The notes: generated from the sequence alone by a model not told the origin. A stretch of DNA of 54,677 nucleotides from a bacterium (GCA_021824045.1 JAKALR010000003.1:1-54677), one strand, 5' to 3'. Positions 34,926 through 54,234 are shown, counted from the first letter of the stretch. Made by a program: numbers and translations.

Positions 34926-36002
34926 TTAGTTGCGATCAGATTTTAATTCGTCCAATCTGGCAGTAATGTACCGAAATGTCTCCTGGTAGGCGTGGCAGAA
35001 TGGTATATTGCCGTCATATCGCCCAGAAAACCAGAAAGCTTCCGAGCGGCAACCTCCTCTGCAAATCGGCAAGAATTCACAATTACCACAATTGGCTTTT
35101 ATGTGCTCGTCACGCATTTCCCGTAGTTTTTTAACCGAGCTATTGTTGAGTATTCTAAGAAGTGGCTCATGAAAAATATTGCCGAGCACAAATTCATTCA
35201 GGGCCAATGAGCCGCAGGGCACTACTTTCCCGCTTTGGGTGATAGTTATCATCCTTTTAAGACAGACTTCTGAGAATGAGCACAGTGTCGGTCTTGAACC
35301 GAGTAGTGACCGCAGGATGTTATCGAGTGGTTGAATTGAGGAAAAATTGTTCTCGGTATACATCCATAGATTAAACACATCTCTGTAGAGATCAAATATT
35401 TCTTCATCGCTCGGCAGGAGAGGTTTGGTCGCCAGTGGAACAGATTTTAATGGCAAGAGAGAAAAAGAATCGACGCCAATTTCCTTGAATAAATCGAAGA
35501 TTTCATGACTACGTCTGACATTGAGTTTGCTTATCACGCAGAGCGTTCTCAGCGGCAATCCATGCTGTTTGATAAGTTCGCATATGCCAAGCATTCTTTC
35601 CGGTTTGACACCCCGGTGGATCTCGCAAATTTCCAATGGGGCATCGAAACTCAAGCCAAGGTGGAAATCATTCTCTTTGAGGAAATCGAGCCAGCGATCG
35701 TCAAGAAGCGTGCCATTGGTTTGTATAGTGTTCCTAAACACAATGCCGCGTTTCTCTTTCTCCTTCTTCTCTGCGTCTAAAATCTTACTAAAGAATTCCA
35801 TGCCAACACTTAAGGGTTCGCCACCGAACCAACAAAAATCTACATTATCGAAGCCGAGAGAGCAATTCTGAATAAGTGTTCCCAGGTTTTTCGCATCAAA
35901 TCTACTTTTTTTATCCTGAGATGTGGCTGCGTGGCAATAGCTGCAATGTAAGTTACATGCAGAGGTTGTCATGGCTATGACTGTTGCCGATCTTTGTGGC
36001 AT
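34926..36002 (-). CDS. Radical SAM/SPASM peptide maturase 1 (anSME-like scaffold)
   Basis: CNLHCSYC, WFGGEPL, QTNGTLLD; SPASM C.F...C...VVPC...GNI...CGNCEFLPICRGGC. Confidence 0.88.
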   Translation of the reverse strand: MPQRSATVIAMTTSACNLHCSYCHAATSQDKKSRFDAKNLGTLIQNCSLGFDNVDFCWFGGEPLSVGMEFFSKILDAEKKEKEKRGIVFRNTIQTNGTLLDDRWLDFLKENDFHLGLSFDAPLEICEIHRGVKPERMLGICELIKQHGLPLRTLCVISKLNVRRSHEIFDLFKEIGVDSFSLLPLKSVPLATKPLLPSDEEIFDLYRDVFNLWMYTENNFSSIQPLDNILRSLLGSRPTLCSFSEVCLKRMITITQSGKVVPCGSLALNEFVLGNIFHEPLLRILNNSSVKKLREMRDEHIKANCGNCEFLPICRGGCRSEAFWFSGRYDGNIPFCHAYQETFRYITARLDELKSDRN

Positions 36003-36014
36003 TTCCTCACCCCC

Positions 36015-36215
36015 CTACGTATCAACGTAATATTCATGAGATGGAGACTCAATATAATACTGATGGAAATCAGTGTTGGCGCATCCGCTCTTTCCTTCAA
36101 TGACGCTCTTGATGATGCGTTTCACTGGGAGCGACACGTCGGATAATTTTTCCTCGGATATCTTACTTGCATCCAAGGTTACATTATCAGTAGCATCAAA
36201 CAACTCTTTCCTCAT
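36015..36215 (-). CDS. Putative RiPP precursor 1 (66 aa, tandem HxYY[IV][ED] core)
   Basis: AAGGAG RBS; 12 nt upstream of rSAM-1; core ...DFHQYYIESPSHEYYVDT. Confidence 0.7.
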   Translation of the reverse strand: MRKELFDATDNVTLDASKISEEKLSDVSLPVKRIIKSVIEGKSGCANTDFHQYYIESPSHEYYVDT

Positions 36216-36325
36216 GTCACACTTCTCCTTTTGGGATTTTTCTTCGTTACGGTTTTTTCAGAGAATCTGGACATTCCAAATTGTCCAAGGATCTGGTATT
36301 ATTATAACATAAACTAGACACTCGT

Positions 36326-37363
36326 GTGAAGATTATTTTAAAACTGAGCAAAACGGCCAATTTCTTCTTTTTCGTCAGTAATCTGTCGGAATGGCACTTT
36401 TCCTGCCGAAAAACATACAACGAGGCGTGGCTTAAAAAAACCGGGCCGCTCAAAGCCGAAGAAAAAAAAGTATTGTTATTATTCAAGAAAATAATGAAGC
36501 GGCGCGGATTTTCCCGAGACAAAGATTGGCAAAGTGAATATCTCGGCAAATATTTCTATCTGTTTCCAAAAGAGAGCGTTTGGAGGGAACTTAAAAAAAC
36601 TGCAAGCGAAAAGGAAATACAGCAGTTGAAAATGATCTTTGACGTCGTGCGTCCCCGGTTTGAAAAGATATGGAAATCGTATGATCCCGGGAAGAGAGTA
36701 TCTATCATCGAAAGATATATACACAGCAGGCTCTATACAAAACTTCTGGATGATTTGGGGATGGTTTTCGGAGGAAAAAAGAGTATGCTTGAGAAACTCA
36801 ACGTCGTCATTATCGTTTCCCCTCTCGGCAAAGAGACGACAGCGGCCGGCGGAGCAAACACGGGCCCAAGCAGCATAACCCTCGAACTTCCCAGCCTGAG
36901 ACCAAAGACTTGGCAACTGGACTTTTCCGCGATGATTCTCGCCCATGAAATAGCCCACAGTCTCTTTGAAAGACGCGGTGGTGCCGAACTTATTTCAAAA
37001 TCCATCACGAGATTGAGATTACCAAAAACAATCAAAAATCTTCCCGAAGGATTCAGCACCATGCAGTTGATCAACGAAGCCCTTACGGGAAGTTTCGTGC
37101 CACTCGGTTACTTTGGTCAAAAGTATACCCAATTCAGATTAGCCCCGCTTTTGTTAAACGATTTAAACAAGGGTCTCATTGGTTATCAAAAACTGTCATG
37201 CGGAGAGAAGATAAACTATTACAATGAATTGGAATATTATCTCATCCCCAGCTTGTATTCTCTCGCAATCATCTATGGGAGGAATAAAAAATCAATCGAC
37301 CGGAATTTCGTTCTTGAGGTAGCGAAAACTATAAAAACCTCTCTGCGCTACCGTTCACCGTAG
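36326..37363 (+). CDS. HExxH metalloprotease-like protein
   Basis: ILAHEIAH plus downstream NEAL third-ligand-like motif; stop codon supplied by the 65-bp repeat. Confidence 0.6.
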   Translation: MKIILKLSKTANFFFFVSNLSEWHFSCRKTYNEAWLKKTGPLKAEEKKVLLLFKKIMKRRGFSRDKDWQSEYLGKYFYLFPKESVWRELKKTASEKEIQQLKMIFDVVRPRFEKIWKSYDPGKRVSIIERYIHSRLYTKLLDDLGMVFGGKKSMLEKLNVVIIVSPLGKETTAAGGANTGPSSITLELPSLRPKTWQLDFSAMILAHEIAHSLFERRGGAELISKSITRLRLPKTIKNLPEGFSTMQLINEALTGSFVPLGYFGQKYTQFRLAPLLLNDLNKGLIGYQKLSCGEKINYYNELEYYLIPSLYSLAIIYGRNKKSIDRNFVLEVAKTIKTSLRYRSP

Positions 37364-37396
37364 CGCCTCACTTTCTCCCATATGGGAAAAAGTGAA
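37332..37396. repeat. 65-bp double-hairpin repeat A, copy 1
   Basis: Identical to 39810-39874; contains gcgctaccgttcaccgtagcgc and tcactttctcccatatgggaaaaagtga palindromes. Confidence 0.9.
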
Positions 37397-37398
37397 AT

Positions 37399-37453
37399 CC
37401 ACTGCACGGTGAAACCATTTGCCGAAACGGCGGTCGTTGTCACACCGGTCGGC
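37399..37453 (-). pseudogene. 55-bp relic of the FN3 C-terminus of the 47607-49787 surface protein
   Basis: Encodes PTGVTTTAVSANGFTVQW, matching PTGVTTTAVSANSFTVQW at ~47793-47848 with mostly silent changes. Confidence 0.75.
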
Positions 37454-37517
37454 CTGTTTGTTAAAGTTTTCGCATGCTCCCAATAAGCGGCAACGGAGCG
37501 TGATACACTTATTACAT

Positions 37518-38192
37518 ATGGAGTTGATTCTTATCCGACACGGCGAAACCAAAGAGGGCAAAAAGGGGATTTTATTGGGACAACTTCCGGGTACATTGAC
37601 GGCCAAGGGGCGCAGGTTTGCCGACGAAGTCGGTCGCGTGATCGCCGGATTTTCATATCGCTCCCCGCTTATTATCGCAAGTGATTTAGAACGATCAAAA
37701 GAAACCGCGCGCGCCATTGCGCGGATTACGCACGCGCCTTTAAAATGTGATAGATTGCTCCGGGAACGGAACGGAGGCATCGACGAGGGGAAAAAAGAAA
37801 GTCAAATAAATTGGAAAGAATATGAAAGGAGGCCACTCGCCTATCGCCGGCACGAAGGGGGAGAAAGTTTTGCTGATGTTAAGAAGCGAGCGAGCGCATT
37901 TCTGGAAAAAATACAAAAGGAAAAGCATTCACCGATCATTATTGTTTCCCATCAAGCGCTTATTTCCACGCTGCTCTCAGAACTTTTTGGTTGGAGCTAT
38001 CCAAAAGCCCTTAAGTTTGATCTTAAAAACAAGTTGGTCATTGTGAATACAAAAAAACGGGAGTGGACGAAATCACACTCCCGTTTAAGGATTGTTCTAG
38101 TTGATATGAGAGTATCATTGCTCGGTTATTATCGTGTGCAGCTTATGAGCAATAATATCACGAATCATGGCACATCGATCGACAGGAAATGA
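37518..38192 (+). CDS. Histidine phosphatase (phosphoglycerate mutase family)
   Basis: LIRHGET, SDLERS.ETA, LRER..G, GES, VSH; 3' end overlaps rSAM-2 by 78 nt. Confidence 0.85.
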   Translation: MELILIRHGETKEGKKGILLGQLPGTLTAKGRRFADEVGRVIAGFSYRSPLIIASDLERSKETARAIARITHAPLKCDRLLRERNGGIDEGKKESQINWKEYERRPLAYRRHEGGESFADVKKRASAFLEKIQKEKHSPIIIVSHQALISTLLSELFGWSYPKALKFDLKNKLVIVNTKKREWTKSHSRLRIVLVDMRVSLLGYYRVQLMSNNITNHGTSIDRK

Positions 38193-39368
38193 GCTAAACC
38201 AGTCACCGTTCTTGGAATAAACACATCCGCCCCGACAATGCCATTTTGCAAAACATGTCGCACAGCCGGGCATGTTCAAAACGTGGAACTGACGAACTGA
38301 TTCAACTGATTCATCGCGAATCGTGACGCCCCGATCGGTCACCATGCCGATTTCGAACGATTTGGCAAATGCGCTTTTGTCATTGAAAGAAATGGTGCAC
38401 GCAGAGATGGTACCGTCCGGTGACACCGAATAGTTGGGAATTGGCACAGAACATGGAAATGGCGACACCGAATGAATATCAGTACCCGTCAGATTGATAT
38501 CCATACCTTTTGCGCGGTAATCTTTCCACAATTCGAAGTATGCTTTTCCAAGCGCGGCATAATCAACAGTAGATTTGCCTCCAAGGGCTCGACCGAGATT
38601 TTCTTTAAGGCTGAGAAAGATATGTTTCACACCATATGTATACATCTCATCGACAATCTCCCGAAGATGTCCACTGTTCGACTCAGAAACTACCACGAGT
38701 ACGCTCATTGGAACGTTGTTCTCGAGAAGAAAACCAATGTTTCCCCACACGCGTCTTGCAATCTGCGCGTTGCCACCATATCTGAGGTTTTTGTCTCCGA
38801 AACCATCCCAGGAAACTTGCACTTCCTTCATGTCACCAATAATTCTGGTAAATTTCTTGCGACTAAAAAGGCCGTTCGTGAGAAGACGAGGTATTAACTC
38901 AGTTTTTGCTCCCAATCTACTTCTAGCATATGCGATCGTCTTTTCTATGAATGGTGTGCGTAACGTTGGTTCTCCGCCTGAATAGACTATTTCTAGAAAC
39001 TTGGCGCCGGTTTCTTCGGCGAATTTACAAAAACCGTCGATCGCGTTCTTTGCAATTACCTCCGGCATGTCTGTCACAGGACCGCTATCGGCCCGCACAC
39101 TGCAATAACGACATTCTAAATTACAACCAGTCGTTATGTTGAGACGAAGACGAATCTTTTCTTTGTCGAACACAAACCCCTTATTGCGGATAAAGTCGGG
39201 AACGTTTTTCATGTCCGATGCTTCCTTTAGCCATTCTTCATCGACATCTTCTAGTGTAATTATACCGTCATAGACGGTAAAAAATCTGGTCAGAGGAGCA
39301 TAAAAGAGCGTCTGACCATCGAGGTGGATTGCGTACACCTCTTCTCTTAGTAACCTTTCGTCCAACAT
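38115..39368 (-). CDS. Radical SAM/SPASM peptide maturase 2
   Basis: CNLECRYC, SGGEPTL, TNG, SWDG; SPASM CSVP...PDG.ISAC...CATCFAKWHCRGGC. Confidence 0.88.
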   Translation of the reverse strand: MLDERLLREEVYAIHLDGQTLFYAPLTRFFTVYDGIITLEDVDEEWLKEASDMKNVPDFIRNKGFVFDKEKIRLRLNITTGCNLECRYCSVRADSGPVTDMPEVIAKNAIDGFCKFAEETGAKFLEIVYSGGEPTLRTPFIEKTIAYARSRLGAKTELIPRLLTNGLFSRKKFTRIIGDMKEVQVSWDGFGDKNLRYGGNAQIARRVWGNIGFLLENNVPMSVLVVVSESNSGHLREIVDEMYTYGVKHIFLSLKENLGRALGGKSTVDYAALGKAYFELWKDYRAKGMDINLTGTDIHSVSPFPCSVPIPNYSVSPDGTISACTISFNDKSAFAKSFEIGMVTDRGVTIRDESVESVRQFHVLNMPGCATCFAKWHCRGGCVYSKNGDWFSSFPVDRCAMIRDIIAHKLHTIITEQ

Positions 39369-39415
39369 TGTAGTCTCCTTTCTACTCCCTGATCTTATTT
39401 TTCAGATAAAATGCA

Positions 39416-39444
39416 GGGGGTTAGAATCAGAAATTCCAACCCCC
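39416..39444. terminator. Stem-loop between precursor 2 and rSAM-2
   Basis: gggggttagaat...attccaaccccc. Confidence 0.55.
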
Positions 39445-39450
39445 AACAGG

Positions 39451-39567
39451 CTACTTCGACAGGATGCGTGTATTTGAACAGCAACCGAATGTCGAAGCGC
39501 GATTTCCGTCGGAAATCTTGCCCGAGACAACTTTTTTGGGCTTTTTTACAACAGCAATCTTTTTCAT
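39451..39567 (-). CDS. Putative RiPP precursor 2 (38 aa, not in ORF track): MKKIAVVKKPKKVVSGKISDGNRASTFGCCSNTRILSK
   Basis: GGGAGG RBS, ATG at 39567, TAG at 39453-39451; upstream TTGACA-16 nt-TATATT promoter; co-oriented just upstream of rSAM-2. Confidence 0.7.
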   Translation of the reverse strand: MKKIAVVKKPKKVVSGKISDGNRASTFGCCSNTRILSK

Positions 39568-39809
39568 TGCCTCTTCCTCCCTTCTTACCTAATATTCCCG
39601 CACTCCAATTGGCTGAAATCCACCCTGGATTTCATTTAACTTTATTGAACCAAAAGCGCGTGAAAATATGTAGGGTTTTTTGTTTAAAGACTGATATTAA
39701 TATAATATCATTGATCATCTTGTCAAGGGCCTCGGATTGAACCGGGGATCTAGCGGCGATCAGTATTTTGCTGATATCACTTGGGACATATGAGAGAAGT
39801 GGGTATCAT

Positions 39810-40043
39810 TAAAAACCTCTCTGCGCTACCGTTCACCGTAGCGCCTCACTTTCTCCCATATGGGAAAAAGTGAAGCAACTGGTTCAAAACATACGATCGC
39901 ACAAAGTGTACCAATAGCAAGGATAGGCGAAGAAGCAGTGCTACAAAATATGCGATCGTTGAATTTGTAGCACAGGAGGGCGGCCGGAAAATAAAGAACA
40001 CCGTCAGCACATTGAGCGCTGGCGGTGTTTACATACACTCTTC
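39810..40043. repeat. Composite repeat block: repeat A copy 2, repeat B, repeat C and a terminator shared with 45715-45810
   Basis: 39876-39922 = 42850-42896; 39930-39983 = 42921-42974; 39948-40043 nearly equals 45715-45810. Confidence 0.88.
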
Positions 40044-40064
40044 AGACATTGAAGAAGGTCCTTT

Positions 40065-41633
40065 CTACTTAAGGAGATTCATCTTCTTCGTCTGGACGAA
40101 GTTGCCGGCCTGGAGACGGTAGAAATAGACACCTGAAGCTAAGCTTGATCCGTTGAATTGGACCGAATAGCTTCCGGGGCTCTTTTCTCCGTCAACCAAC
40201 GTCGCAACTTTTTGTCCAAGAACGTTGAAAATGGTCAGGTTAACGATAGTTCTTTTTTGGACCGAGAATTGAATGGTCGTTGTCGGGTTGAAGGGATTCG
40301 GATAGTTCTGGAGCAATGTGAAAGTTGCCGGGCCGTGTGAAGGCTCATCGACGCCGGTCACGATCTTGAAGGACCATGACGCGGAGTCCGATGCTCCTGA
40401 AGCATCGCTCACGACAACGGAAACCGTTGTCGCCGACGAGATCTCCCTGAAGGTATATATCAGGGAATCGCAACCGGCAGAAACAACGTTGCCGTTCACT
40501 TTCCAGGTATAGGAAAGTGAATCGCCGTTCGGGTCCGTTGCCGCAACCGAGAAGGTCATCGGCACGTTGACTCCAACAGAGTCCATCGAGGATGGCATTT
40601 GGGATGCGATCTGAGGAGGCGAAACGACACTGAGCGTCAGGATATAAATGGAACCATTGATGTTTGCCAAGAGATGCGTGCTGTCGAGCTGCATCATGGC
40701 GCCTATCTGGTAACCTTTGAATCCGAAAACGCTCCATGTCGCACCGTTGTCGGTCGAGCGGAACAAGCCGTCGCTCACGATGTTGTTGCCATCACCCACG
40801 AACAATCCGAGATTGCTCGAAGCGAGAATGCTGGGATAACTAACGCCTACCGGAGTAGTTGGCACGGGAACTTTTTGCCAGGTTTTGCCGTCGTCGGTGG
40901 ATTTATAGACTCCTGCATCTTTCGTCGCCGCGAAGACTGTGCCATCTGATGCTTCTTCGAAATTCTCAACGCAATCCAGATCAGCACCATCTCCCGTCGG
41001 CAAACCGCTCGCTATGTTCCATGTGAAACCGTTATCGGTTGATCGGTAAACACCGTACCACTGAGGACTTATTCCCCCAACCCCCATTAGAACCGTGCCC
41101 TTGCTTGTGGTAAACAAACTCGCTGCAGTATTCCAATGGAAAGGAGAATTATCGGTAATAGAACTCCAGGTTTGGCCGTCATCAATGGATCGATAGAGAG
41201 AATCTTGTCCACCGCTGATGATTGATCTATTGGGTGCTACCGTGAAATAACGTCCAGCTTTCGTTGCGATGGTTTCCCATGCGCTTCCTCCATCTATCGA
41301 CCTTCCAAACACACTCCCCAATCCTGTCGCAAGTAGTGTTCCCGAGTCGGTAACTCCCAAAGCAAGAGTGATACCGCCGCTGAACTTAAGGTTCAGAGTC
41401 TGCCACGTTTTCCCGCTATCCGAGGAACGAATGAGATTGTTGGTGCTCGTCTGTCCCACGATATACTCACCGCTTCTCACGAAACGATAAATATAGGAAA
41501 AGTTACTGACATTCATGGTGTCAACCGGGAATACGCGGATCTGATCTGTGATCATCAGCCCCCTGGTCCCTTGTCCGAGAACAATCGCTGCAATGCTCAA
41601 AAGGAGCATTGCGATCATCATCAAACGTTTCAC
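40065..41633 (-). CDS. Secreted BNR/Asp-box beta-propeller protein with Ig/PKD-like domain and T9SS type-A (Por) C-terminal sorting domain, paralog 1
   Basis: Signal peptide; many RS.D.G.TW repeats; tail LLQNYPNPFNPTTTI...IFNVLGQ...SGVYFYRLQAG...KKM.LLK. Confidence 0.85.
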   Translation of the reverse strand: MKRLMMIAMLLLSIAAIVLGQGTRGLMITDQIRVFPVDTMNVSNFSYIYRFVRSGEYIVGQTSTNNLIRSSDSGKTWQTLNLKFSGGITLALGVTDSGTLLATGLGSVFGRSIDGGSAWETIATKAGRYFTVAPNRSIISGGQDSLYRSIDDGQTWSSITDNSPFHWNTAASLFTTSKGTVLMGVGGISPQWYGVYRSTDNGFTWNIASGLPTGDGADLDCVENFEEASDGTVFAATKDAGVYKSTDDGKTWQKVPVPTTPVGVSYPSILASSNLGLFVGDGNNIVSDGLFRSTDNGATWSVFGFKGYQIGAMMQLDSTHLLANINGSIYILTLSVVSPPQIASQMPSSMDSVGVNVPMTFSVAATDPNGDSLSYTWKVNGNVVSAGCDSLIYTFREISSATTVSVVVSDASGASDSASWSFKIVTGVDEPSHGPATFTLLQNYPNPFNPTTTIQFSVQKRTIVNLTIFNVLGQKVATLVDGEKSPGSYSVQFNGSSLASGVYFYRLQAGNFVQTKKMNLLK

Positions 41634-41782
41634 TTTCTTAACGCTCCTTTCGAGTTTTTATCGGTGAAACAACCGTTATGAACTTTATTTACAATCTAAG
41701 GGAAGATTCCTTAGTCTGGTTATATTATACCACAAACAACGAAAAAAGGCAAAAATATTGATTTCCCTTTATTAATGCGGAT

Positions 41783-42376
41783 TTATTGGAGCAATCCCCT
41801 AATGAAGATATTGTACGTCGTCGAGGCATTTAGACCACTAATTCCGAGGGTTTGGGTCCCTGTTGCACTCAAAGCGCTCTGGAGATTCGAGGGGATGGGA
41901 TAGGATTGATAGCAACTGGGATTATTGGCCGGATTCGGCGTACTCGACGGACAAATATTAAAGTTTGGATCCTGTGCACTAAAAAGGTAGATCCCCATCT
42001 GCTTATACGACTGCGGGTTGGTCCATTGCACGGTGAAACCGTTGGAAGTGACGCTCGCGGAAGGGATCGTGACATTCGTCGGCCACTGGTTGCCGCCGGT
42101 CACGTTTGCCGTCGTGACGCAGTAGCTCGAACCGCACCAGGACATTTGTCCCAGGACGTTCACCGGCGTTGTGGGGGTTTGTCCCCCGAAGTTGCCAGTC
42201 GAGGGGTTGTAGGAGATGTCGCTCAAATCGACGAGTCCGTTCCAAGAGCTATTGCTTCCGTCGCCGAATGAAAGGAATTTAGCCTCGCCGGAAAGTTTCC
42301 CCGTCGACGAATCTATCTTGGGGGCTTGGCCCGACGGCACATCGGAAGGATTGAACGACAGCCAGCCATAGCCGCC
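41783..42376 (-). pseudogene. Orphan (startless) alternative C-terminus of the 47607-49787 surface protein
   Basis: GYGWLSFN...TPTTPVNVLGQMSWCGSSYCVTTANVTGGNQWPT shared with the full-length gene, followed by a different FN3 end; no signal peptide or good start. Confidence 0.75.
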
Positions 42377-42568
42377 CTATTTCTTCAATTTTTGTATACC
42401 CAAATCTTGGCAGATTTTCTCTGCTAAGAAATTATTAATCTCCTGATGGCGCGGTACCGTCGAAACCCTTCTGGTTTCGGGATTAAAAAAGACGCTGTGT
42501 CTAGCGCCCTCGCGTACAAAAACGCAACCTTGTTTCATGATGTGGTTTATAAGATCGCGTCTCTTCAT
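42377..42568 (-). CDS. hicA: HicA-family toxin
   Basis: MKRRDLI.H....GC.F.REGARH...VPRH.EI. Confidence 0.88.
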   Translation of the reverse strand: MKRRDLINHIMKQGCVFVREGARHSVFFNPETRRVSTVPRHQEINNFLAEKICQDLGIQKLKK

Positions 42569-42780
42569 AAAGACACGAAAATCGGTTCTCTTAAGATTTT
42601 GGAGTCGGAGCTCTTAACCAAAAACTTGCCCGTTTCCAGAACAAGCACCAGAGCTTCCTTGAGGTTTTCTTTGGCTTCTTTTAGCGTGCGGCCCTGAGTA
42701 TTAACGCCGGGAATTTCTTCTATCCATGCGGAGTACCATTTTCCAGTTTTTTTATAAACGGCTGTAAATTGTCGGCTCAT
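42565..42780 (-). CDS. hicB: HicB-family antitoxin (short, no DNA-binding domain)
   Basis: EEIPGVNTQGRTLKEAKENLKEAL; ATGA overlap with hicA. Confidence 0.88.
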   Translation of the reverse strand: MSRQFTAVYKKTGKWYSAWIEEIPGVNTQGRTLKEAKENLKEALVLVLETGKFLVKSSDSKILREPIFVSL

Positions 42781-42849
42781 AATACTTCAATAGTATCATA
42801 GATTTATTTAAAAACAAGCGTATATTCGAACACTTGCCGGATTTTGGAA

Positions 42850-43113
42850 CAACTGGTTCAAAACATACGATCGCACAAAGTGTACCAATAGCAAGGGTGG
42901 GCAAAGAGGCAGCGCTACAAAAGAAGCAGTGCTACAAAATATGCGATCGTTGAATTTGTAGCACAGGAGGGCGGTTCAAAAGAAAGAAGGCTGACATATG
43001 CAGAGCATAGTCATCCTTCGAAAATCCGATTCCTAAAGAGGAATCCGAACCTTCTTTTTTGCAATCAATGAAGTATTGGCACAAAAAAAGACGATCGCAC
43101 CAAGCGTACCAAT
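42850..43113. repeat. Second copy of repeats B and C plus a degenerate B copy at 43091-43113
   Basis: caactggttcaaaacatacgatcgcacaaagtgtaccaatagcaagg; gtgctacaaaatatgcgatcgttgaatttgtagcac; acgatcgcaccaagcgtaccaat. Confidence 0.8.
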
Positions 43114-43185
43114 GAGACACTCGGAAAACAAAGAACCATAGGTTGATATTATTATAATACAAGTCGGGAACCAAAAACGCCTCCA

Positions 43186-43905
43186 TTAAATTGATTTTGC
43201 GCAAATAAAGTATATCCTGTCGGAGACTTCTGACGCGCGGTCACCGTTCCCATCAATGACGTCAACCCCTTTAAACATTTTCTTAAGGGATCTCTCAATC
43301 TCTATGATAGGGAATGAACATTCTTTTATATTCTCGGAACTTACCACCTCCCCACCGTTTATGCCGCCCTTCATAACCTTAATGTCCCAGTTATAAATCT
43401 CCATTTCTTTTATCACACTTATCACCACTCTCCCATCGTTGAGTATTCTTATTATTGGATTCGATTGAGTTAATTTTTCTAACTTCTGCCGCGTATTAAT
43501 ATCAAAGATAAAAATACCCCCACCATTTAAATGGCGATAAGCACGAGAAAATGCATGCTCCCAATTTTCATAATTCAGTAGGTGGTTCATGGTATCGAAT
43601 ATACACAAAACGACATCATATCTCCCGGAGAGAGAAAAATTTGATATATCCTGATGAGATAAGTGAGCATTGGGGACTTTCTGTCGCGCAATTGAAAGCA
43701 TTTCCTCCGATGTGTCAATGCCAACAACAGAGTATCCGAGATCAGAGAAATATTCTAAAAACATTCCTGTTCCGCACCCTAATTCTAAGATGGTTTTTGC
43801 TTGTGGATTGTATTTCTTAATTAATTCTTCGATAAACTTTTCTCCATTTTTCCTATCCCCCATCGCGGAATCATAAAATTTAGCAAAAGCCCCGTAGTTA
43901 GTCAT
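43186..43905 (-). CDS. Class I SAM-dependent methyltransferase
   Basis: ILELGCGTG, GIDTSEEML, L..GGIFIFD. Confidence 0.88.
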   Translation of the reverse strand: MTNYGAFAKFYDSAMGDRKNGEKFIEELIKKYNPQAKTILELGCGTGMFLEYFSDLGYSVVGIDTSEEMLSIARQKVPNAHLSHQDISNFSLSGRYDVVLCIFDTMNHLLNYENWEHAFSRAYRHLNGGGIFIFDINTRQKLEKLTQSNPIIRILNDGRVVISVIKEMEIYNWDIKVMKGGINGGEVVSSENIKECSFPIIEIERSLKKMFKGVDVIDGNGDRASEVSDRIYFICAKSI

Positions 43906-43945
43906 ATCCCTATTTTACACTCTCGCAAAAGAATTGAGAAACAAA

Positions 43946-43971
43946 AGAGCTCATCGATATAAGATGAGCTC
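43946..43971. terminator. Hairpin after rSAM-3
   Basis: gagctcatc...gatgagctc with A-run flank. Confidence 0.55.
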
Positions 43972-43988
43972 AGTGCTACCAAAAATAT

Positions 43989-45368
43989 TCAGAGAGCAAA
44001 GCCATACTCCCTGAGAAGAGGGGCAACCTTTCTCTTAAAGAAAGAGACCGCCAAGCAGGCATAGTCGTCTTTCGCGTTGTAAAAATCACCGTGGAGAAAA
44101 TAAGCATTTGCCCGACATCCCGTGCCACAGAGTTCTCGCAGTTTGCATCCTCTGCAACCAGCAACATCGCCGATCTTCACCGTTTTTACCTCGCGCATTT
44201 TGTCGGAGTACCAAATATTCCAAATTGATGATTGTTTAATATTACCAATCGGCAATTCAGAACAGTAGGCACAGGAAACGACATCACCGTTCGGTTTCAC
44301 GCAACATTCGGACCTACGACCCTCATAATCACAAACGAAATCGTTATCCGTAAGTTTCTGGAAACCTTGTTCAAAGAGCTGTTCCCTGAACAAATATTCA
44401 ATTTGCAAGTGAAACGGCATGCCGTTCGCCAAATGTCGCCGCAAAAGGACTAAACAGCGCTCGGCAATAATACCCCATTCTACGTTGAATGTTGCGCGGT
44501 AATTCTTGAACTCCGGCGTCATCTTGGGAAAACCAAGTCTCCAACTGCTCACACTCATCCTTTTCACCAGATCATACATTGCATCAAGATGATCAATATT
44601 CTCCATGTTCACCACGGTGTTCACGACTACACTGATCCCTTTTGAGGTTAATAGCATAATGTTCCGCACTATGCGCTCGAGCACTTTCCTGGAATCCTTA
44701 CTGGAGAAACCCCGAAAGGAAAAGTCCACGCCGGGGATCGAATCAAGGCTGACAAAAAGCGAGAACTGACTGCGCAACTCCTGGACCGCCTGGATGAACC
44801 TGCCGTTTATCAACAGACCGTTCGAGAATATCGCAGAAATTCTCATCTTTCTCTCCTCGATGGCTGATAGCACATCGGCAAGCCGGGACATCATCAACGG
44901 CTCGCCGCCACTGATCCCGATGTTATTTACCTGCATGCCCTGCAAATCATCAAGAAGGCGAATAATCTCGTCGAAGCTCAACTCTTCGCCGCTCTTGACA
45001 TATTCAGCTTGATAGCAGTGAACGCATTTCATATCGCACTTACCGCTCGCTTCTAGATGGACTGCCTCAAGTCTTCTGTCCGGCACTTGATTTCTCCCGA
45101 GAACTCTTGGCGCGGATGCATTAGTAAATTCTACAGCTGAGATATTTTTCAGTTGATCAATGAATTGTAATACATCAACCCTCGAGGTTTTGGCGTATTG
45201 TTTGAGTATCTGTTCCACAGTGTTCGTGCCGTCAAGTGACTGGAGGAATTCAACCTGGTCGGCAGTCAACTCATAGGTAGTACCATTCCGCAAACAATAA
45301 AGAGTGCTCATTGATGTGGAATGCTTCAGTGTGAAATCGCCCGCTAACGAAACATATTGATTGGGCAT
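43989..45368 (-). CDS. Radical SAM/SPASM peptide maturase 3 with N-terminal RRE (PqqD-like) domain
   Basis: GAGGAGG RBS before MPNQYV; N-terminal ..YEL....EFLQSLDG..TVEQI winged-helix pattern; CDMKCVHC, SGGEPL; SPASM C...PNGDVVSC...GNI...CRGC.LRELCGTGCRA. Confidence 0.88.
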   Translation of the reverse strand: MPNQYVSLAGDFTLKHSTSMSTLYCLRNGTTYELTADQVEFLQSLDGTNTVEQILKQYAKTSRVDVLQFIDQLKNISAVEFTNASAPRVLGRNQVPDRRLEAVHLEASGKCDMKCVHCYQAEYVKSGEELSFDEIIRLLDDLQGMQVNNIGISGGEPLMMSRLADVLSAIEERKMRISAIFSNGLLINGRFIQAVQELRSQFSLFVSLDSIPGVDFSFRGFSSKDSRKVLERIVRNIMLLTSKGISVVVNTVVNMENIDHLDAMYDLVKRMSVSSWRLGFPKMTPEFKNYRATFNVEWGIIAERCLVLLRRHLANGMPFHLQIEYLFREQLFEQGFQKLTDNDFVCDYEGRRSECCVKPNGDVVSCAYCSELPIGNIKQSSIWNIWYSDKMREVKTVKIGDVAGCRGCKLRELCGTGCRANAYFLHGDFYNAKDDYACLAVSFFKRKVAPLLREYGFAL

Positions 45369-45420
45369 ACGAGCCTCCTCTTTTTTAAAAGTACTTAACG
45401 TACAAAAACTATAGAATAAT

Positions 45421-45450
45421 GGGTGGAATGCTTTTGAGAACACTCCACCC
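45421..45450. terminator. Stem-loop between precursor 3 and rSAM-3
   Basis: gggtgga...tccaccc. Confidence 0.5.
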
Positions 45451-45469
45451 CCGCTGGAGCCGAGTGAAA

Positions 45470-45589
45470 CTACGAACCCGGCGCACTGGCGTTCAGGGCC
45501 TGCGTCAGTCTTACCTGAAGCACCCTCTTTTTGAGTAAAGAGTTTTTCAGGACCTTCTGACCGGCCCCTTTTACCAGGGGCTTTTTCAT
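45470..45589 (-). CDS. Putative RiPP precursor 3 (39 aa, not in ORF track): MKKPLVKGAGQKVLKNSLLKKRVLQVRLTQALNASAPGS
   Basis: GAGAGG RBS, ATG at 45589, TAG at 45472-45470; upstream TATAAT; same layout (peptide, hairpin, rSAM) as cassette 2. Confidence 0.62.
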   Translation of the reverse strand: MKKPLVKGAGQKVLKNSLLKKRVLQVRLTQALNASAPGS

Positions 45590-45714
45590 AACAGCCTCTC
45601 TACAGTTTTTGTTAAGCAAGTAACTTCACAGAAAAGCCTGCAAATACCAATTACCTGCCCTATGATTATAATAACACAAAAATAAACCATTCGTAATAAA
45701 AACGCCGCCTCGCT

Positions 45715-45810
45715 ATATGCGATCGTTGAATTTGTAGCACAGGAGGGCGGCCGAAAAATAAAGAACACCGTCAGCACATTGAGCGCTGGCGGTGTTTACA
45801 TACACTCTTC
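45715..45810. repeat. Right half of repeat C plus terminator, shared with 39948-40043
   Basis: atatgcgatcgttgaatttgtagcacaggagggcggccg...aacaccgtcagcacattgagcgctggcggtgttt. Confidence 0.85.
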
Positions 45811-45826
45811 CATTGAAGAAGATCTC

Positions 45827-47473
45827 CTATTTAAGTAATTCCATCTTCTTGATCTGGGAGAAGGTTCCAGCTTGGAGACGGTAGAAATAGACGCCGCTGG
45901 AGAGATTCGATCCATTGAATTGGACCGAGTAGCTTCCGGGGTTCTTTTCTCCGTTTACCAAAACTTGAACTTCTTGCCCCAAAATATTGAAGATAGACAA
46001 GTGAACGAAAATGGGTTTTGAGACCGAGAATTCGATCGTGGTGGTCGGGTTGAAAGGATTCGGGTAGTTCTGGAGCAATGTGAAAGTCGCCGGGCCGTGA
46101 GAGGGCTCATCGACGCCGGTCACGATCTTGAAGGACCATGACGCGGAGTCTGATGCTCCCGATGCATCACTCACGACGACGGAAACCGTTGTCGCCGACG
46201 AGAGTTCCCTGAAGGTATATATCAGGGAATCGCAACCGGCAGAAACAACGTTGCCATTCACTTTCCAGGTATAGGAAAGTGAATCACCGTTGGGGCTGCT
46301 TGCCGCAACCGAGAAGGTCATCGGCACGTTGACTCCAACGGAGTCCATTGAAGATGGCATCTGGGATGCTATTTCCGGCGGGTTGGATGGGGTATACGAA
46401 ACGATGTATATACCGGATCCTGTACCCGCAAGGATTCTACCGCCACCGTAAGGATAGAGACAGTATCCATTGGTATTCGCGAGACCAACAAACTGCCACG
46501 TTTTACCGGAGTCTGCTGAATAATAGAGGCCTGCATCTCCGCTTATTCCCGCGCCAATATCATTGTGGTATATCGCCCACACTTTTCCATTGGCCGCGAG
46601 AACCGCAGAGGCATACTTCGGCATCGGAGTCGACCCATTGACCTGAATCCAGCTTTGACCGTCGTCATTGGAGCGGAAGATTCCCTCTCCATCAGTCGCG
46701 GCGTAGACAACGCCAGTCGAAGAATCACACGACAACCCCCAGATGTTGTATCCGTTGGCTGCCATGTTTCCATTCGAGTCCAGTGTGCCATCACCGATGT
46801 TGCCGATCTGACCAATGAGACCACTGTCGGCCTCCATCCAAGTGCCGCTATCACCATTGTCAGTGGAACGGTAAATTCCCGAAGTCCATCCTTGAGGATC
46901 ACCATTGCCAGTACCAGCGATAATTGTTCCTCTCGGCGTGAAAGTAATAGCACGAAAACCACCAATTGGAGGATTAAGTACATTGAGCCAGTCCGAACCG
47001 TTATCGATTGAACGATAAACAGATCCCCCAAAACCAGTTGCCACGAACATATTACTATCCTTTATGCTTATCGCTAAAGGACCGGTAGAGTTGAGGCCCT
47101 GCACAGAATTCCAAGAATTGCCGTTATCAGTGGAATTGAAAAGGTCACCTCCTGTTCCCAAGAACAATGTTCCATTTGAATTTGCCTCAATGGCATATGC
47201 GGATGCAAATGGCATATTGGCGCCCTTGAGACCATTCATTAAATGAACCCAGGTGCTTCCTCCATCAGAAGAGCGATAGAGGTAATCAGTTCCGGTACCA
47301 GCGAAAATATTTCCACTTCTATCAACAAAGAGGGAGGCGACGGCAGCGTTGATTTTTCCACCATCGAGGATATTTTTCATTTGGAATTTTGTGGTAACGT
47401 TCGTCTGACTCCAAACCGCTATTGGCCAGATGCTCGCGAGGAGCACCAAAGCAAAAAGAATGATTCGCTTCAC
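45827..47473 (-). CDS. Secreted BNR beta-propeller protein with Ig/PKD-like domain and T9SS type-A C-terminal domain, paralog 2
   Basis: Same RBS/start context (aaaggagcgttaagaaaGTG) as paralog 1; highly similar last ~180 aa; divergent propeller. Confidence 0.85.
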   Translation of the reverse strand: MKRIILFALVLLASIWPIAVWSQTNVTTKFQMKNILDGGKINAAVASLFVDRSGNIFAGTGTDYLYRSSDGGSTWVHLMNGLKGANMPFASAYAIEANSNGTLFLGTGGDLFNSTDNGNSWNSVQGLNSTGPLAISIKDSNMFVATGFGGSVYRSIDNGSDWLNVLNPPIGGFRAITFTPRGTIIAGTGNGDPQGWTSGIYRSTDNGDSGTWMEADSGLIGQIGNIGDGTLDSNGNMAANGYNIWGLSCDSSTGVVYAATDGEGIFRSNDDGQSWIQVNGSTPMPKYASAVLAANGKVWAIYHNDIGAGISGDAGLYYSADSGKTWQFVGLANTNGYCLYPYGGGRILAGTGSGIYIVSYTPSNPPEIASQMPSSMDSVGVNVPMTFSVAASSPNGDSLSYTWKVNGNVVSAGCDSLIYTFRELSSATTVSVVVSDASGASDSASWSFKIVTGVDEPSHGPATFTLLQNYPNPFNPTTTIEFSVSKPIFVHLSIFNILGQEVQVLVNGEKNPGSYSVQFNGSNLSSGVYFYRLQAGTFSQIKKMELLK

Positions 47474-47606
47474 TTTCTTAACGCTCCTTTCTGAGCTTTC
47501 TGTTAAGCAATCAGTTATTGAGAAATGACAAGCAAGGATTTATTTAACTTCATCCTTGGCTGTTAAGTATTATACCACAAATCGCTGAAAAATGGAAGGG
47601 GTAGAT

Positions 47607-49787
47607 TTACTTCAAAAATGCTCGTATTTTCACGTAGTATGTTGTATTGGGACTCAAATTATTTATTGTTTGTGAATATGTAGTATTTGATGAAGTTGCA
47701 TCCAATTTCGGTATTATAAACCATCCCCTCACTGGATTACTCGACGTGGCATACAACACCTGCGCACCACCGGCGTAGCTCTGTGGGTTGTACCATTGCA
47801 CGGTGAAACTATTTGCCGAAACGGCGGTCGTTGTTACGCCGGTTGGCCACTGGTTGCCGCCAGTCACGTTTGCCGTCGTGACGCAGTAGCTCGATCCGCA
47901 CCAAGACATTTGTCCCAGGACGTTCACCGGCGTTGTGGGAGTCTTGCTCCCGAAGTTGCCGGTCGAGGGGTTGTAGGAGATGCCGCTCAAATCAACCCAG
48001 CCGTCCCAGGAACTGTTGCCGCCGTTGAAAGCGGGGAACCGGGCGTAGCCGGAGAGTTGATTTTTCGCCGGATTCAACTTCGGAGCGCAATTCGGAGCTC
48101 CCGTTGGGCAGCCGTTGAAGTCACTGGTGTTGAACGACAGCCAGCCGTAGCCATTCCCGCTCCACGCGTACCCGGAAAGGTTATTGTTCGAATCTATGTA
48201 CACGCCATACTGATTCGAGTCGGTCGGCGAGGTATTCGAACTGAATTTCACCCAGCCGATGCCCTGGTAGGTTGCTCCGCCCGTTTTCGCGTTGAAATAT
48301 TGTCCAAGACCCCAGACAGCCGAGATCCCATAGCCATCAACTTCGTAATAGTACGGCATGATGTTGCTCAGATTACTGTCGGTGAAGGTATGCGTGCTGC
48401 CGGGATTCAAATTAAAGGAATCTATTTGAGTTTTCCCGCTGCATCCGAAAGCGGAACTGTATCCGGAGCACCGATAGATGGTTCCCTTCCATACATCATT
48501 CGGGTTGACCACGGAGATCGTAACGCTGTTCGCCGAAGCGCTCCCGGTGACCGAGAAGGGCACCGACGGAGTTCCATAGAAACTCGACGATCCCATCTTT
48601 TGGAAATAGCCGTTGGTTATCGTCCCATTGACATTGGCCCAGGCATACCCCGAAAGCGATTCTTTCAGATTCAAGTTGATGGAACCCGATGTCACGGGAC
48701 CGGTGATATTCCCGCTCCCGTCCTTGAAGGCAACGCTGTAAACATGAGTTGCGCTGAGCGGCGCCGTAGTGTCGTAGTACGACGTCGCCGTAGAACGCCC
48801 GAGAGACACGGTGTATATCTGTGTTCCGTCCCGGTATACAACGTAGGTCCCCGACGAAGCATTTTTGACCGTCGGCCAGGAAAGATACACCGTCCCCTGA
48901 TTCGCGGTCGTCGAGGCATAGACCACATTAGCGGTCATGGAGGATCCGCTGAAACTCGGTAGAGGCGGCACCACTTTCGTGAAATTCGCCGTGAGAGCGC
49001 CCGATGCGGTACTCCCCGTATCATTGATAATCTTGCACGTTGCGTTGGTCACCGGGTAGCAAGAATCCAGAGCGATGCCCGTACCGCTCCAGCTGGAAAA
49101 CGTGTAGCCGGATGCGGGAGTAGCAGTGAGAGTGATATTTTGCGGAGGCGTAAATTTCAAATTGGTGCTGCACTGCGTCGATCCCTCGCCGCAGTCTATG
49201 GCAGTTACCCCGGCGCTACTGTTTACCGTCGTGATCATGCCGGCATTATTATTGGCGCTTCCATTAGCGGCTAACTGAACGGTCAAATTATTCGATGGCG
49301 GCGGCGACGGCGGCTGATAAGCTTGGGTGAAATCAGCCGATACGGCCGCGTTATAGACGTCATCCACGATCCAGGTCAACGAGCATGCGCTCGTATTCGG
49401 CGTTCCGCTGCACGCGCCGCCCCAGCTTGAAAATTGGTATCCACTTGCGGGCGTTGCCGTCAAAGTAACCGTGATATTGCCGCTGCCGACTCCCCCGCTG
49501 CATCTCGTGCCGGTCGTGCCGCAGTTTATGATTACCGTTCCGCTCTGGGTTTTACCAACCACCGAACCAGCGACCGTCCCGCTGCCGCCGTTCAATGTTA
49601 TCGTAACCGACAACTGCCGCGTCGGTTGCGGAGGCGGCGGAGGCGTCCCGCCTCCCCCCCCCGTTCCTCCGCCATCCGGGGGCAATGGCGCTACCGCGGA
49701 CACGCCATGCGACATCATAACGGACCCTACGCCGATGGCCGCGATCGCGATGAAAAAGATGAAAAATTTTTTATTCGACAATTTCAT
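47607..49787 (-). CDS. Secreted surface protein with divergent InlB-B-like repeats, FN3 domains and CPR-type LSGYAW..GW.SF repeats
   Basis: Signal peptide, Pro/Gly linkers, two TLTATPASGY.FSSW repeats, C-terminal NLSPNTTYYVKIRA. Confidence 0.75.
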   Translation of the reverse strand: MKLSNKKFFIFFIAIAAIGVGSVMMSHGVSAVAPLPPDGGGTGGGGGTPPPPPQPTRQLSVTITLNGGSGTVAGSVVGKTQSGTVIINCGTTGTRCSGGVGSGNITVTLTATPASGYQFSSWGGACSGTPNTSACSLTWIVDDVYNAAVSADFTQAYQPPSPPPSNNLTVQLAANGSANNNAGMITTVNSSAGVTAIDCGEGSTQCSTNLKFTPPQNITLTATPASGYTFSSWSGTGIALDSCYPVTNATCKIINDTGSTASGALTANFTKVVPPLPSFSGSSMTANVVYASTTANQGTVYLSWPTVKNASSGTYVVYRDGTQIYTVSLGRSTATSYYDTTAPLSATHVYSVAFKDGSGNITGPVTSGSINLNLKESLSGYAWANVNGTITNGYFQKMGSSSFYGTPSVPFSVTGSASANSVTISVVNPNDVWKGTIYRCSGYSSAFGCSGKTQIDSFNLNPGSTHTFTDSNLSNIMPYYYEVDGYGISAVWGLGQYFNAKTGGATYQGIGWVKFSSNTSPTDSNQYGVYIDSNNNLSGYAWSGNGYGWLSFNTSDFNGCPTGAPNCAPKLNPAKNQLSGYARFPAFNGGNSSWDGWVDLSGISYNPSTGNFGSKTPTTPVNVLGQMSWCGSSYCVTTANVTGGNQWPTGVTTTAVSANSFTVQWYNPQSYAGGAQVLYATSSNPVRGWFIIPKLDATSSNTTYSQTINNLSPNTTYYVKIRAFLK

Positions 49788-52526: not shown

Positions 52527-53654
52527 TTAGAAGGATTGGAATATTTGAGTACAGTGGATACTCGGGAGTGTATTCGCCTGAAATTTGATAGCATCGATGT
52601 AGTATCCATTCGGACAAATAATCGGCAGTCGCCCCCCGCCAACCAAATCCGTCCCTATGGTATTAGCAGGAGTTATACTACTGTCAACGCTCTTAACGAA
52701 GTTGGTGATATCCGTATTGCCGCTGGGACTCTGCAAAATAATCCCATCTCCACTGTTATTCCACACCACTAAGTCCGAGGATAATGATGCATTCGCATCC
52801 ATCGAGGGGTTCTCAGCGATTTGACCAACCGTTATGTTCGCGAAACTCGGCTTTCCCATCGATCCTTTCAATATATCCACATTGCCATTCGCGTACACCC
52901 GCACAAAAGCGCCGGATGAAAAATTGCCATATCCTCCGCCGCCCAGGAGTGTGGACCCATCAGTCACGTCGCTCGCCAGATCAATAAAGCCGTTGACGTG
53001 ATTCACGAAGATGCCGGAAAACGACACAATGTTCCCATTCGGCAACGTACCGCTCGGCGCGTTGTACTGGCCAAGCAACGAGCTTGTGGAAAAATACCCA
53101 CCCGACAAGATAACCGGCCCCATGCCACTGTAATTCTGGGTTCCCAGGGGATTGGTATACATATTCAGCCCGCCGCTTCTGTCCGCGTTTAATACCGAAA
53201 AGTCGGGAACCATGAAATTTCCGCTCTCAAGATCGGCGATGGAACCCTGATTCGAAGCACCAGCAATAACCGACTCCGTAGAAAGAAACGTTCCGCTGGA
53301 TGATTGCCAATTGTAGCCGAGAACCGACGAATAACCGCCGCCGGTAACTCGAATACCTTGCGAGTTAACATCGTAAACCATGGAACTCGTAACATTACCA
53401 TTGCTGTCGATCCACTGGATGCCGGCAGGCGACAATTGCAACCGCAGTGGCTGAGACGCGCCGCCTATCATGAGACTGCCCGCCGCCGTTTGCGACGACG
53501 TGCCAGTATCAAGCGGCGGGTAAAACATTCCTAACGGCGGCTGAGTATTCGGAGCCGCATATTGGGCACTCACCGAAGAGTATCCCTCAAATCCTAAGAC
53601 CACGAAGAGCACGAGGGCGAGATGAAAAAGCGGATTGGAGAAAAGTTTCTTCAT
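52527..53654 (-). CDS. Secreted hypothetical protein (fiber/adhesin-like)
   Basis: Signal peptide, PP....PPLDTGTSSQTAAGSL, C-terminal ICPNGY...IHC. Confidence 0.6.
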   Translation of the reverse strand: MKKLFSNPLFHLALVLFVVLGFEGYSSVSAQYAAPNTQPPLGMFYPPLDTGTSSQTAAGSLMIGGASQPLRLQLSPAGIQWIDSNGNVTSSMVYDVNSQGIRVTGGGYSSVLGYNWQSSSGTFLSTESVIAGASNQGSIADLESGNFMVPDFSVLNADRSGGLNMYTNPLGTQNYSGMGPVILSGGYFSTSSLLGQYNAPSGTLPNGNIVSFSGIFVNHVNGFIDLASDVTDGSTLLGGGGYGNFSSGAFVRVYANGNVDILKGSMGKPSFANITVGQIAENPSMDANASLSSDLVVWNNSGDGIILQSPSGNTDITNFVKSVDSSITPANTIGTDLVGGGRLPIICPNGYYIDAIKFQANTLPSIHCTQIFQSF

Positions 53655-53716
53655 GCGAACTTCTTTTAAAGCATTATAGCACATTTGCGCCACGAGAAAT
53701 ATGGTATAATGAGCAC

Positions 53717-54229
53717 ATGGAAATAATGACTCCAAAAAACAAAAAAGTTCTCACAATCCTCAGCCTCATCCTTCTCGTCGTCGTGATATTCATCGTTGGT
53801 TTCTGGGCTGGAAACCAAATCGGCATGCGAACGGGAACCGCGGAAGGGGTTCAGACAGCCGAAGCGCAATACAAACCGCTCTTGAACGTTGCATTTCCGG
53901 AACCGCCGGCCGTGCTTACGCAAACCAGGGCAAAAATAACTGGCATTGAGGGAAGTACTTTCACCATCTCAATGGATGATCCAAATGACTACCTCCCCCA
54001 TCTTGATGGCTCCCCTAAGAAGCAAATTACGAAAACGGTTGTCATTAATCCCGGTACGCAAATCATAAAGTTAGACTACTCGAAAATGGATAAATCGGGA
54101 ATGCCTCTTCAGTCTCCCCTTGCCATATCGGACTTGAAAACGGGCGACATAGTAACGGTCACCACAAATTCGAATATCAGGACCGACAATACGTTCGTTG
54201 CGAATCAAATCACTCTTGCGGTATACTAG
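53717..54229 (+). CDS. Single-TM protein with DUF5666-like OB-fold domain
   Basis: TM helix, then KITGIEG..FTI ... [12 protein letters not shown]...A..I. Confidence 0.55.
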
Positions 54230-54234
54230 CTTCC

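Follow-up and report, generated by a model that had tools for sequence, protein, structure and literature searches.

Type A C-terminal domains (CTDs) of type IX secretion systems (T9SS) are usually treated as signals that are meaningful only in combination with a type IX machine in the outer membrane. In T9SS cargo proteins, the PorU sortase cuts off the CTD, and the protein becomes attached to A-LPS or is set free. The fold of these domains and the conserved surface motifs required for T9SS function (motif C-t. and loop beta3-beta4) are taken here from a published description (PMC11285876). The second hallmark of export in Bacteroidetes is the Q-rule, i.e., a Gln directly after the cleavage site of the signal peptide, which, as described in PMC5837995, co-occurs phylogenetically with T9SS and reaches a Q-value of 77% in Ignavibacterium album. 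Here we analyze two paralogous genes that combine both hallmarks with a BNR propeller (hereinafter BNR-CTD genes) and are located in a 54,677 nt stretch of bacterial DNA (GCA_021824045.1 JAKALR010000003.1:1-54677, hereinafter the window; the genome is labelled G000). A conserved, selected and cargo-shuffled CTD of this type is present throughout a family of ultra-small, single-membrane bacteria of the candidate phyla radiation (CPR, or Patescibacteria).

The G000 genome consists of 611,871 bp in 32 contigs and is 97.68% complete and 0.13% contaminated. Apart from the BNR-CTD genes, the window encodes PheS, GatA, LigA, RecG, the CCA enzyme and a type IV pilus operon, and the best named relatives of LigA all belong to the Patescibacteria group, Jorgensen-, Wolfe- or Liptonbacteria, Paceibacterota or Minisyncoccia. 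The initial annotation of this sequence, in which the organism was taken to be a CPR bacterium that should lack T9SS, thus agrees with every named LigA relative. Six-frame searches of G000 with hidden Markov models (HMMs) detected neither SprA (TIGR04189) nor GldK (TIGR03525) nor PorV (NF033710), with no T9SS-positive genome among the controls, whereas the PorU model (NF033707) matched only the CTD tails themselves. A scan of genome contigs with the 548-aa protein yielded 3 loci, none of them in a genome of the Fibrobacteres-Chlorobi-Bacteroidetes (FCB) group. Omp85, for which the same model matches 7/7 diderm controls, LpxC and sortase were not found in G000 by six-frame HMM search either, and the same holds for glutaminyl cyclases of both types (PF05096 and PF04389, the latter being the M28 family, which we take to include the type II enzymes; controls match in 4 and 14/14 genomes). 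Among the 61 genomes of the family analyzed, PorV was found in none and Omp85 scored above the cut-off in one (G018, a bin with 5% contamination); it was also absent from all 5 CTD-bearing genomes that were searched elsewhere in the phylum. In a cell with neither an outer membrane nor a T9SS, the CTD cannot serve that cell as a T9SS signal; it must, therefore, either have a different function or be recognised by a host.

Both BNR-CTD genes, as well as their expression signals, the fn3 gene with its truncated paralogue and the island genes described below, are on the (-) strand. The product of gene 1 (40065..41633, 522 aa), delineated using Pfam and NCBIfam profiles, an AF2 model and Foldseek, consists of a signal peptide (residues 1-20, 41574-41633), a seven-bladed BNR/Asp-box propeller (residues ~21-334, 40632-41573), an Ig/PKD linker (residues ~335-436, 40326-40631) and a T9SS type A CTD (residues ~437-522, 40068-40325). 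The product of gene 2 (45827..47473, 548 aa), delineated by profile matches and BLASTP, has the same layout: a signal peptide (residues 1-22, 47408-47473), a BNR/Asp-box propeller (residues ~23-360, 46394-47407), an Ig/PKD linker (residues ~361-462, 46088-46393) and a T9SS type A CTD (residues ~463-548, 45830-46087). With profile models as defined in PMC11205867, the two tails score 47.6 and 41.0 bits on TIGR04183 (cut-off 23) and 45.8 and 43.5 bits on PF18962 (cut-off 27), the latter matches spanning residues 444-518 of 522 and 470-544 of 548, respectively; thus, the T9SS-type character proposed for them in the initial annotation is borne out by the profile search. By contrast, the generic FlgD_ig profile (PF13860) stays below its cut-off of 27 on both tails (19.9 and 16.8 bits). 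The position of the domain is constant, as it ends at most 15 residues from the C-terminus in the 48 non-redundant CPR CTD proteins extracted, and the KKMxLLK strand at the C-terminus and the GxY motifs hardly vary among 35 aligned proteins or, in a separate set, among 24 CPR tails; motif C-t. and loop beta3-beta4 are defined structurally in P. gingivalis.

The N-termini of both proteins, which start with K/R followed by a hydrophobic core and [GS]Q, look like Sec signal peptides, as judged by a crude script rather than by a dedicated predictor. In a similarly crude motif search on related proteins, [AGS]Q follows the hydrophobic core in 21/25 CTD proteins of the family vs 17/139 other G000 open reading frames (ORFs) with an N-terminal core. 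The propellers score 54.8 and 54.7 bits on the Sortilin-Vps10/BNR profile (PF15902, cut-off 33), and both miss the cut-off of 175 of the F510_1955 glycosylhydrolase model (NF045728; 77 and 70 bits). In the AF2 model of the 522-aa protein (mean pLDDT 79.2; 88-94 in the CTD), a propeller, an Ig domain and a seven-stranded C-terminal sandwich are apparent. The propeller resembles Ycf48 (5ojp_C, TMt 0.73, rmsd 4.2) and DAIP (6fhp_A, TMt 0.62, 20% identity) in Foldseek comparisons, as well as sialidases, sortilin and GH74 enzymes (2cn2, E 4e-8 with phmmer). We claim no enzymatic function for the propeller, which is probably a binding module.

In an even sample of the family, the tail scores over the cut-off in 34/61 genomes, representing 24/43 genera, and reaches E<=0.001 in 36/61. 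There are 1-8 matches per genome, with the exception of the contaminated G018 bin, which has 9. This bin (1.4 Mb, 320 contigs) also contains the only Omp85 over the cut-off in the family, a fragment, and its tail genes may belong to a co-binned FCB organism. Congeneric genomes mostly agree on the presence or absence of the tail, and the tail was not found in the sister families of the order (0/16). In the phylum sample, the tail is over the cut-off in 22/401 genomes, G000 counted, including 4 copies in the closed genome G254. The concern that the tail is a generic domain widespread in CPR is partly borne out by these counts. In G000, a six-frame search with the tail profile found 3 copies, the third of which belongs to a 503-aa protein encoded on contig C11 (6706-8217) with no cargo domain recognised by Pfam. 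An orthologue in the databases (P0245) carries the automatic NCBI name 'T9SS type A sorting domain-containing protein [Patescibacteria group bacterium]'; a literature search that excluded subscription journals and bioRxiv supplements returned no paper on T9SS tails in CPR.

The location of the genes is conserved. In G001, a closed, single-contig genome (804,691 bp) from the same genus, the gene order is the same as in the window: homologues of 52527-54677 are followed by those of 51115, 49787 and the 726-aa fn3 protein, then by a BNR-CTD gene with a 432-aa product, other genes over ~12 kb, a methyltransferase and another BNR-CTD gene, with a 458-aa product, and finally by the homologue of 33370, ComF, PilM and PilB. 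The slot occupied by the BNR-CTD genes in G001 lies between a conserved gene for an fn3 surface protein and the type IV pilus operon, and in five genomes of the genus, including G001, G004, G005 and G007, a BNR-CTD gene immediately follows the fn3 gene. In the window, this neighbour (47607..49787) encodes a 726-aa exported or membrane-anchored protein with a Flg_new_2 (InlB B-repeat-like) region and C-terminal fn3 domains.

The genes sit in an island with a GC content of 43-48% vs ~51% for the contig, flanked by CPR core genes on the same contig. In four metagenome runs (X1-X4) from one study, labelled mine drainage metagenome, one of which may be the source sample, contigs cover all 30 bins, with even depth over the flanks and the island (~11x in X1). 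The Logan contigs break at each internal repeat without bridging the duplicated parts, so that the usable evidence consists of the depth and the absence of conflicting joints. Furthermore, a perfectly palindromic repeat of ~28-30 nt that occurs twice within the island (37368-37395 and 39846-39873) recurs on contigs C25, C20, C17, C1 and C26 of the same genome. Taken together, the synteny with G001, the flanking core genes, the even depth and the native repeat dispel the suspicion that the contig is chimeric. In all four runs, the 32-nt stretch at the start of the tail (40278-40310) shows an approximately 3x higher depth and several loose ends on both sides; therefore, this stretch must also occur, with >=95% identity, in further genes of these metagenomes.

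The tails are 55-67% identical to the tails of proteins named after Ignavibacteria, Bacteroidota/Bacteroidetes, Kapaibacterium, KSB1, Chrysopegis and others, in line with the FCB-type style that had been noticed in them. The propeller shows a different pattern. Among the candidates scored from 5.8 billion proteins, it has six close relatives (57-73% identical, 448-460 aa, one of them named Patescibacteria), whereas the remaining ones, FCB-type proteins of ~700 aa, are at most 35% identical. Given this drop in identity, the gene has long been resident in the CPR clade. Of the acquisition from FCB put forward in the initial annotation, descent from that group is likely, but a recent transfer does not fit the six close propeller relatives and the synteny with the closed genome G001.

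Purifying selection acts on the tail, which changes more slowly than the cargo. Between the two paralogues, the tails differ by dN 0.19 and dS 0.99 (dN/dS 0.19), and among 9 orthologues, pairs with 55-58% identity in the cargo retain 70-74% in the tail. In the same pairs, the signal peptides are only 14-32% identical, with [AG]Q kept at the likely cleavage site. The Ig parts of the paralogues, with a dS of 0.33 and a dN/dS of 0.10, fit later gene conversion.

Comparison of the two genes reveals a mosaic in which the likeness differs by domain. The proteins share 277/560 identities (49%, E 1e-146, BLASTP); at the DNA level, compared in 60-base windows, the propellers are essentially unalignable (14-38 matches per 60 bases), whereas the Ig/PKD linkers are identical in 279/300 positions (93%) and the tails in 180/240 (75%), with the 3' flanks again nearly the same (53/60 and 57/60 bases, a 96-nt block being 99% identical). 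Furthermore, the propeller of the 45827 gene is orthologous to the propellers of the genus, which lack the Ig linker, while its tail groups with that of its paralogue (SH-aLRT 95); the C11 tail groups with the BNR tails of the genus; and in G005 and P0241, cargoes that are 95% identical are joined to tails that are only 70% identical. The initial annotation had described paralogues with divergent propellers, a near-identical Ig/PKD linker and closely similar tails, and had proposed that the cargo is exchanged on a constant tail. The DNA comparison, the lack of the Ig linker in orthologues of the genus and the tail swap between near-identical cargoes support these points. Across the family, the cargoes include BNR propellers, S8 subtilases, fn3/Ig domains, ~300-aa proteins without a Pfam cargo and a HYDIN-like Ig domain, and elsewhere in the phylum, LRR, M23+CBM, VWA and PQQ-like domains.

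Outside the family, there are two further observations on the tails. In G361, from a different Patescibacteria family, a 109-aa protein (L012:1432-1761) that consists of a signal peptide and a tail only is encoded directly after a 757-aa tail-bearing protein. In addition, 11 tails from other Patescibacteria families (G361, G254, G434, G053 and G101; L049-L057, L061, L044 and L055) group apart with an SH-aLRT of 97, several of them with a 5-residue insertion and a FlgD_ig score equal to or above that of Por_Secre_tail; they may represent a CPR-specific variant of the tail.

The duplicated unit comprises more than the coding sequences. An identical 14-nt block, TTTGTGGTATAATA, identified by repeat comparison and resembling an extended -10 promoter element, is located upstream of gene 2 (47568..47581) and gene 1 (41723..41736). 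The leader block with the ribosome-binding site (RBS; ~47474-47493 and ~41634-41653, respectively) is also identical, the identity extending over 23 nt from the GGAG site through the GTG start codon. After both genes, the same hairpin with a U tract, resembling an intrinsic terminator, is present (45752..45796 for gene 2, within the 96-nt repeat 45715-45810, and 39985..40029 for gene 1, within the repeat 39948-40043; z -4.2 and -3.0). The shared RBS and terminator that had been reported for the pair are thus indeed present, and because each gene possesses its own -10-like box, GGAG site and terminator, each is a separate transcription unit. Beyond the earlier description, the unit extends into the upstream fn3 gene, the 3' end of which it includes (42078-42261 vs 47842-48025, 88% identical), and a truncated fn3 paralogue (41783..42340, 185 aa, 59% identical to the 726-aa protein) marks its 5' edge. 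At 37399-37454, a third remnant matches 47793-47848, in the 3' part of the fn3 gene, with 91% identity, which suggests that an earlier copy of the duplicated unit existed here and was mostly lost by deletion.

The explanation that we favour, and to which we assign about half of our confidence, is that these are old, FCB-derived genes that are now native, with the CTD working without T9SS as an Ig-like module for retention at, or presentation from, the surface. Under this scenario, the genes would be vertically inherited in a Patescibacteria (Paceibacteria-type) lineage, and their products, each predicted to combine a Ycf48/sortilin/DAIP-like seven-bladed propeller with an Ig/PKD spacer and a CTD, would be exported via Sec. 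An FCB origin is most likely, and the whole export design, i.e., the Q-rule signal peptide together with the CTD, would stem from an ancient donor of the Ignavibacteria/Bacteroidota type. We infer that the CTD is retained in the mature protein, where it forms a compact Ig-like beta-sandwich, and has a role at the surface or in adhesion: it would hold the protein at the CPR cell surface, or present it from there, with the envelope or the neighbouring conserved fn3 protein, for instance, as its docking site. Alternatively, an unrecognised sorting partner in CPR might read the CTD. In this view, the locus diversifies through segmental duplication, gene conversion of the Ig and tail module, and tail swapping, resulting in a small set of surface or secreted proteins built on a constant C-terminal module.

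Several observations weigh against this explanation. The median identity of the tails is 47% within the family vs 50% between family and non-CPR tails, i.e., there is no drift from the FCB consensus, and the Q-rule is kept although no glutaminyl cyclase was found in the G000 search. A role as a generic Ig spacer does not obviously account for either the undrifted tails or the Q-rule without the cyclase. The phylogeny is of little help: in a tree of 167 tails (84 columns) that is unresolved, with only 14 of the 162 inner branches well supported, the family tails are interleaved with non-CPR tails (12 label changes), so the tree decides neither for a single origin nor for repeated transfer. The absence of SprA is to be read with the reservation that its model matched no control genome, which leaves this search without a positive control. 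The AF2 model of the isolated tail (a beta-sandwich with 6 strands by DSSP, pLDDT 86.3) matches the CTDs of PorU (6za2, Z 9.3, rmsd 2.6 over 84 residues) and mirolase (8qb1, Z 9.1 over 76 residues) in VIA-align, but generic Ig domains reach the same level (Z 9-10, top 10.1). In Foldseek, the isolated tail has no match at E<=0.001, the solved CTDs ranking 9, 10 and 41 amid generic Ig domains. Because of this tie, the fold is consistent with a CTD without being diagnostic, and only the sequence models are diagnostic.

The idea of an unrecognised partner can be taken further, to the effect that, after its acquisition, the CTD was recruited as a sorting signal for an undescribed CPR machinery that attaches proteins to the S-layer or cell wall or passes them across it. 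We consider this unlikely. At least five cargo types occur in the family, the CTD being always C-terminal and always accompanied by a signal peptide, and the protein of G361 consists of these two elements without any cargo; the trait follows genera, and the failure to find a sortase in G000 leaves no evident other means of anchoring. Against this, no gene emerged as a candidate for the partner, conservation of the neighbourhood does not reach beyond the fn3 gene, and 27/61 genomes of the family manage without the domain.

The lack of drift in the tail and the retention of the Q-rule could also be viewed in terms of host machinery. Following Sec export at a contact site, the PorV/attachment complex of an FCB host, with its PorU sortase, and the glutaminyl cyclase of the host would read the CTD and Q+1, and the protein would be anchored on, or passed across, the outer membrane of the host. 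Use of the attachment complex and the cyclase would be the best explanation for both hallmarks remaining at the FCB consensus. Selection maintains these two independent features of FCB export in an organism in which the genome searches found neither T9SS nor glutaminyl cyclase, and the CPR tails are as close to FCB tails as they are to one another. The reported phylogenetic co-occurrence of the Q-rule with T9SS (PMC5837995) points in the same direction, as does the description of Bacteroidota as relatively frequent partners of Patescibacteria in gene exchange (PMC12455944), and other genes in the same metagenomes share the 32-nt stretch at the start of the tail. Nevertheless, we regard this possibility as quite doubtful. 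There is no known host for this lineage and no known route into a host periplasm, and the conserved residues may merely reflect the fold. Moreover, CTDs can be incompatible even between two species of Bacteroidota, according to PMC11285876, and therefore mimicry would have to fit one particular host closely. The specific version of this scheme, in which propeller, protease and Ig proteins exported by the CPR cell pass for T9SS cargo of the host and are fixed on its surface by PorV/PorU, is slightly more doubtful still.

Another alternative is neutral: repeated import from FCB and loss, with the tail and the Q-rule being functionless baggage of the donors. The interleaving of family and non-CPR tails, the lower GC content of the island and the tail swaps between strains are all compatible with such a history. 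It is, nevertheless, already disfavoured and, in our estimate, improbable: the dN/dS of 0.19 was obtained at near-saturated dS, orthologues differ less in the tail than in the cargo, no non-CPR relative of the propeller exceeds 35% identity among the candidates scored, and synteny is kept in five genomes of the genus. Finally, an artefact of assembly or binning, in which an FCB fragment was joined to a CPR contig, might be suggested by the FCB-like appearance of the tail and signal peptide and by the precedent of the contaminated G018 bin with its tail matches and Omp85 fragment, but has next to no probability and is already refuted for the window by the same genes in the same slot of the closed G001, the CPR core genes that flank the island, the even depth over the junctions in four runs and the native repeat inside the island.

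Between and beside the BNR-CTD genes, the island has a variable, lower-GC content (34926..45443) that is not conserved in G001. Three genes of the island are of the radical SAM type: 34926-36002 and 43989-45443 encode a SPASM domain, and 38115-39368 has no Pfam match to SPASM. The closest NCBIfam resemblances of the three are PapB-like and NirJ2/ScmE-like, all far under the cut-off. Beside them is a SAM methyltransferase (43186-43905) with a weak resemblance to daptide methyltransferases. Between the truncated fn3 copy and the methyltransferase, there is a HicA/HicB-like pair with a 4-base overlap (42377-42780), consisting of a 63-aa HicA toxin (PF07927, 39.4 bits, cut-off 27) and a 71-aa HicB-like UPF0150 antitoxin (28.4 bits, cut-off 27.3). 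Two small ORFs, 39451-39567 (38 aa, with a CC pair) and 45470-45619 (49 aa), lie immediately upstream of two of these genes and could encode peptide precursors. A functional tie of the CTD genes to the radical SAM and methyltransferase cassettes was considered and is ruled out because the corresponding slot in G001 contains no radical SAM gene, its contents being Ham1, GHMP kinase, U32 peptidase, racemase and similar genes. Among the repeats, a 65-nt block (37332-37396) is 100% identical to 39810-39874, and a 34-nt element (~42986-43019) is found again a short distance downstream of the C11 tail gene.

In practice, the call of a 'T9SS sorting domain' in a metagenome-assembled genome should not count as evidence of either T9SS or contamination. 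The CTD may have a second, T9SS-independent function, which bears on the annotation of such tails in metagenomes. Alternatively, the tail could be a molecular mark left by FCB partners on CPR bacteria, the hosts of which are mostly unknown; were the host machinery to read it, the tail would point to the hosts of this Paceibacteria family.

Among the known systems, the closest counterpart of these proteins is the T9SS type A cargo of FCB bacteria, especially the 'YCF48-related' BNR proteins with a CTD found in Ignavibacteria, Bacteroidota and KSB1. The design is the same, with a signal peptide with Q+1, a propeller, an optional Ig domain and a CTD of ~80 residues, and the solved CTDs of PorU and mirolase share the seven-stranded Ig-like sandwich with the model of the CPR tail. 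The genomic setting is different, as the searches of the CPR genome found no genes for T9SS, the outer membrane, lipopolysaccharide or glutaminyl cyclase, and so is the cargo: the FCB BNR-CTD proteins are ~700 aa long, whereas the CPR proteins have a single propeller (~330 aa) that is at most 35% identical to them. The generic C-terminal FlgD_ig domains (PF13860) belong to the same fold class as the tails of the window, and on several CPR tails from other parts of the phylum, PF13860 outscores PF18962. The tails of the window, by contrast, score well over the T9SS-specific cut-offs and under that of PF13860.

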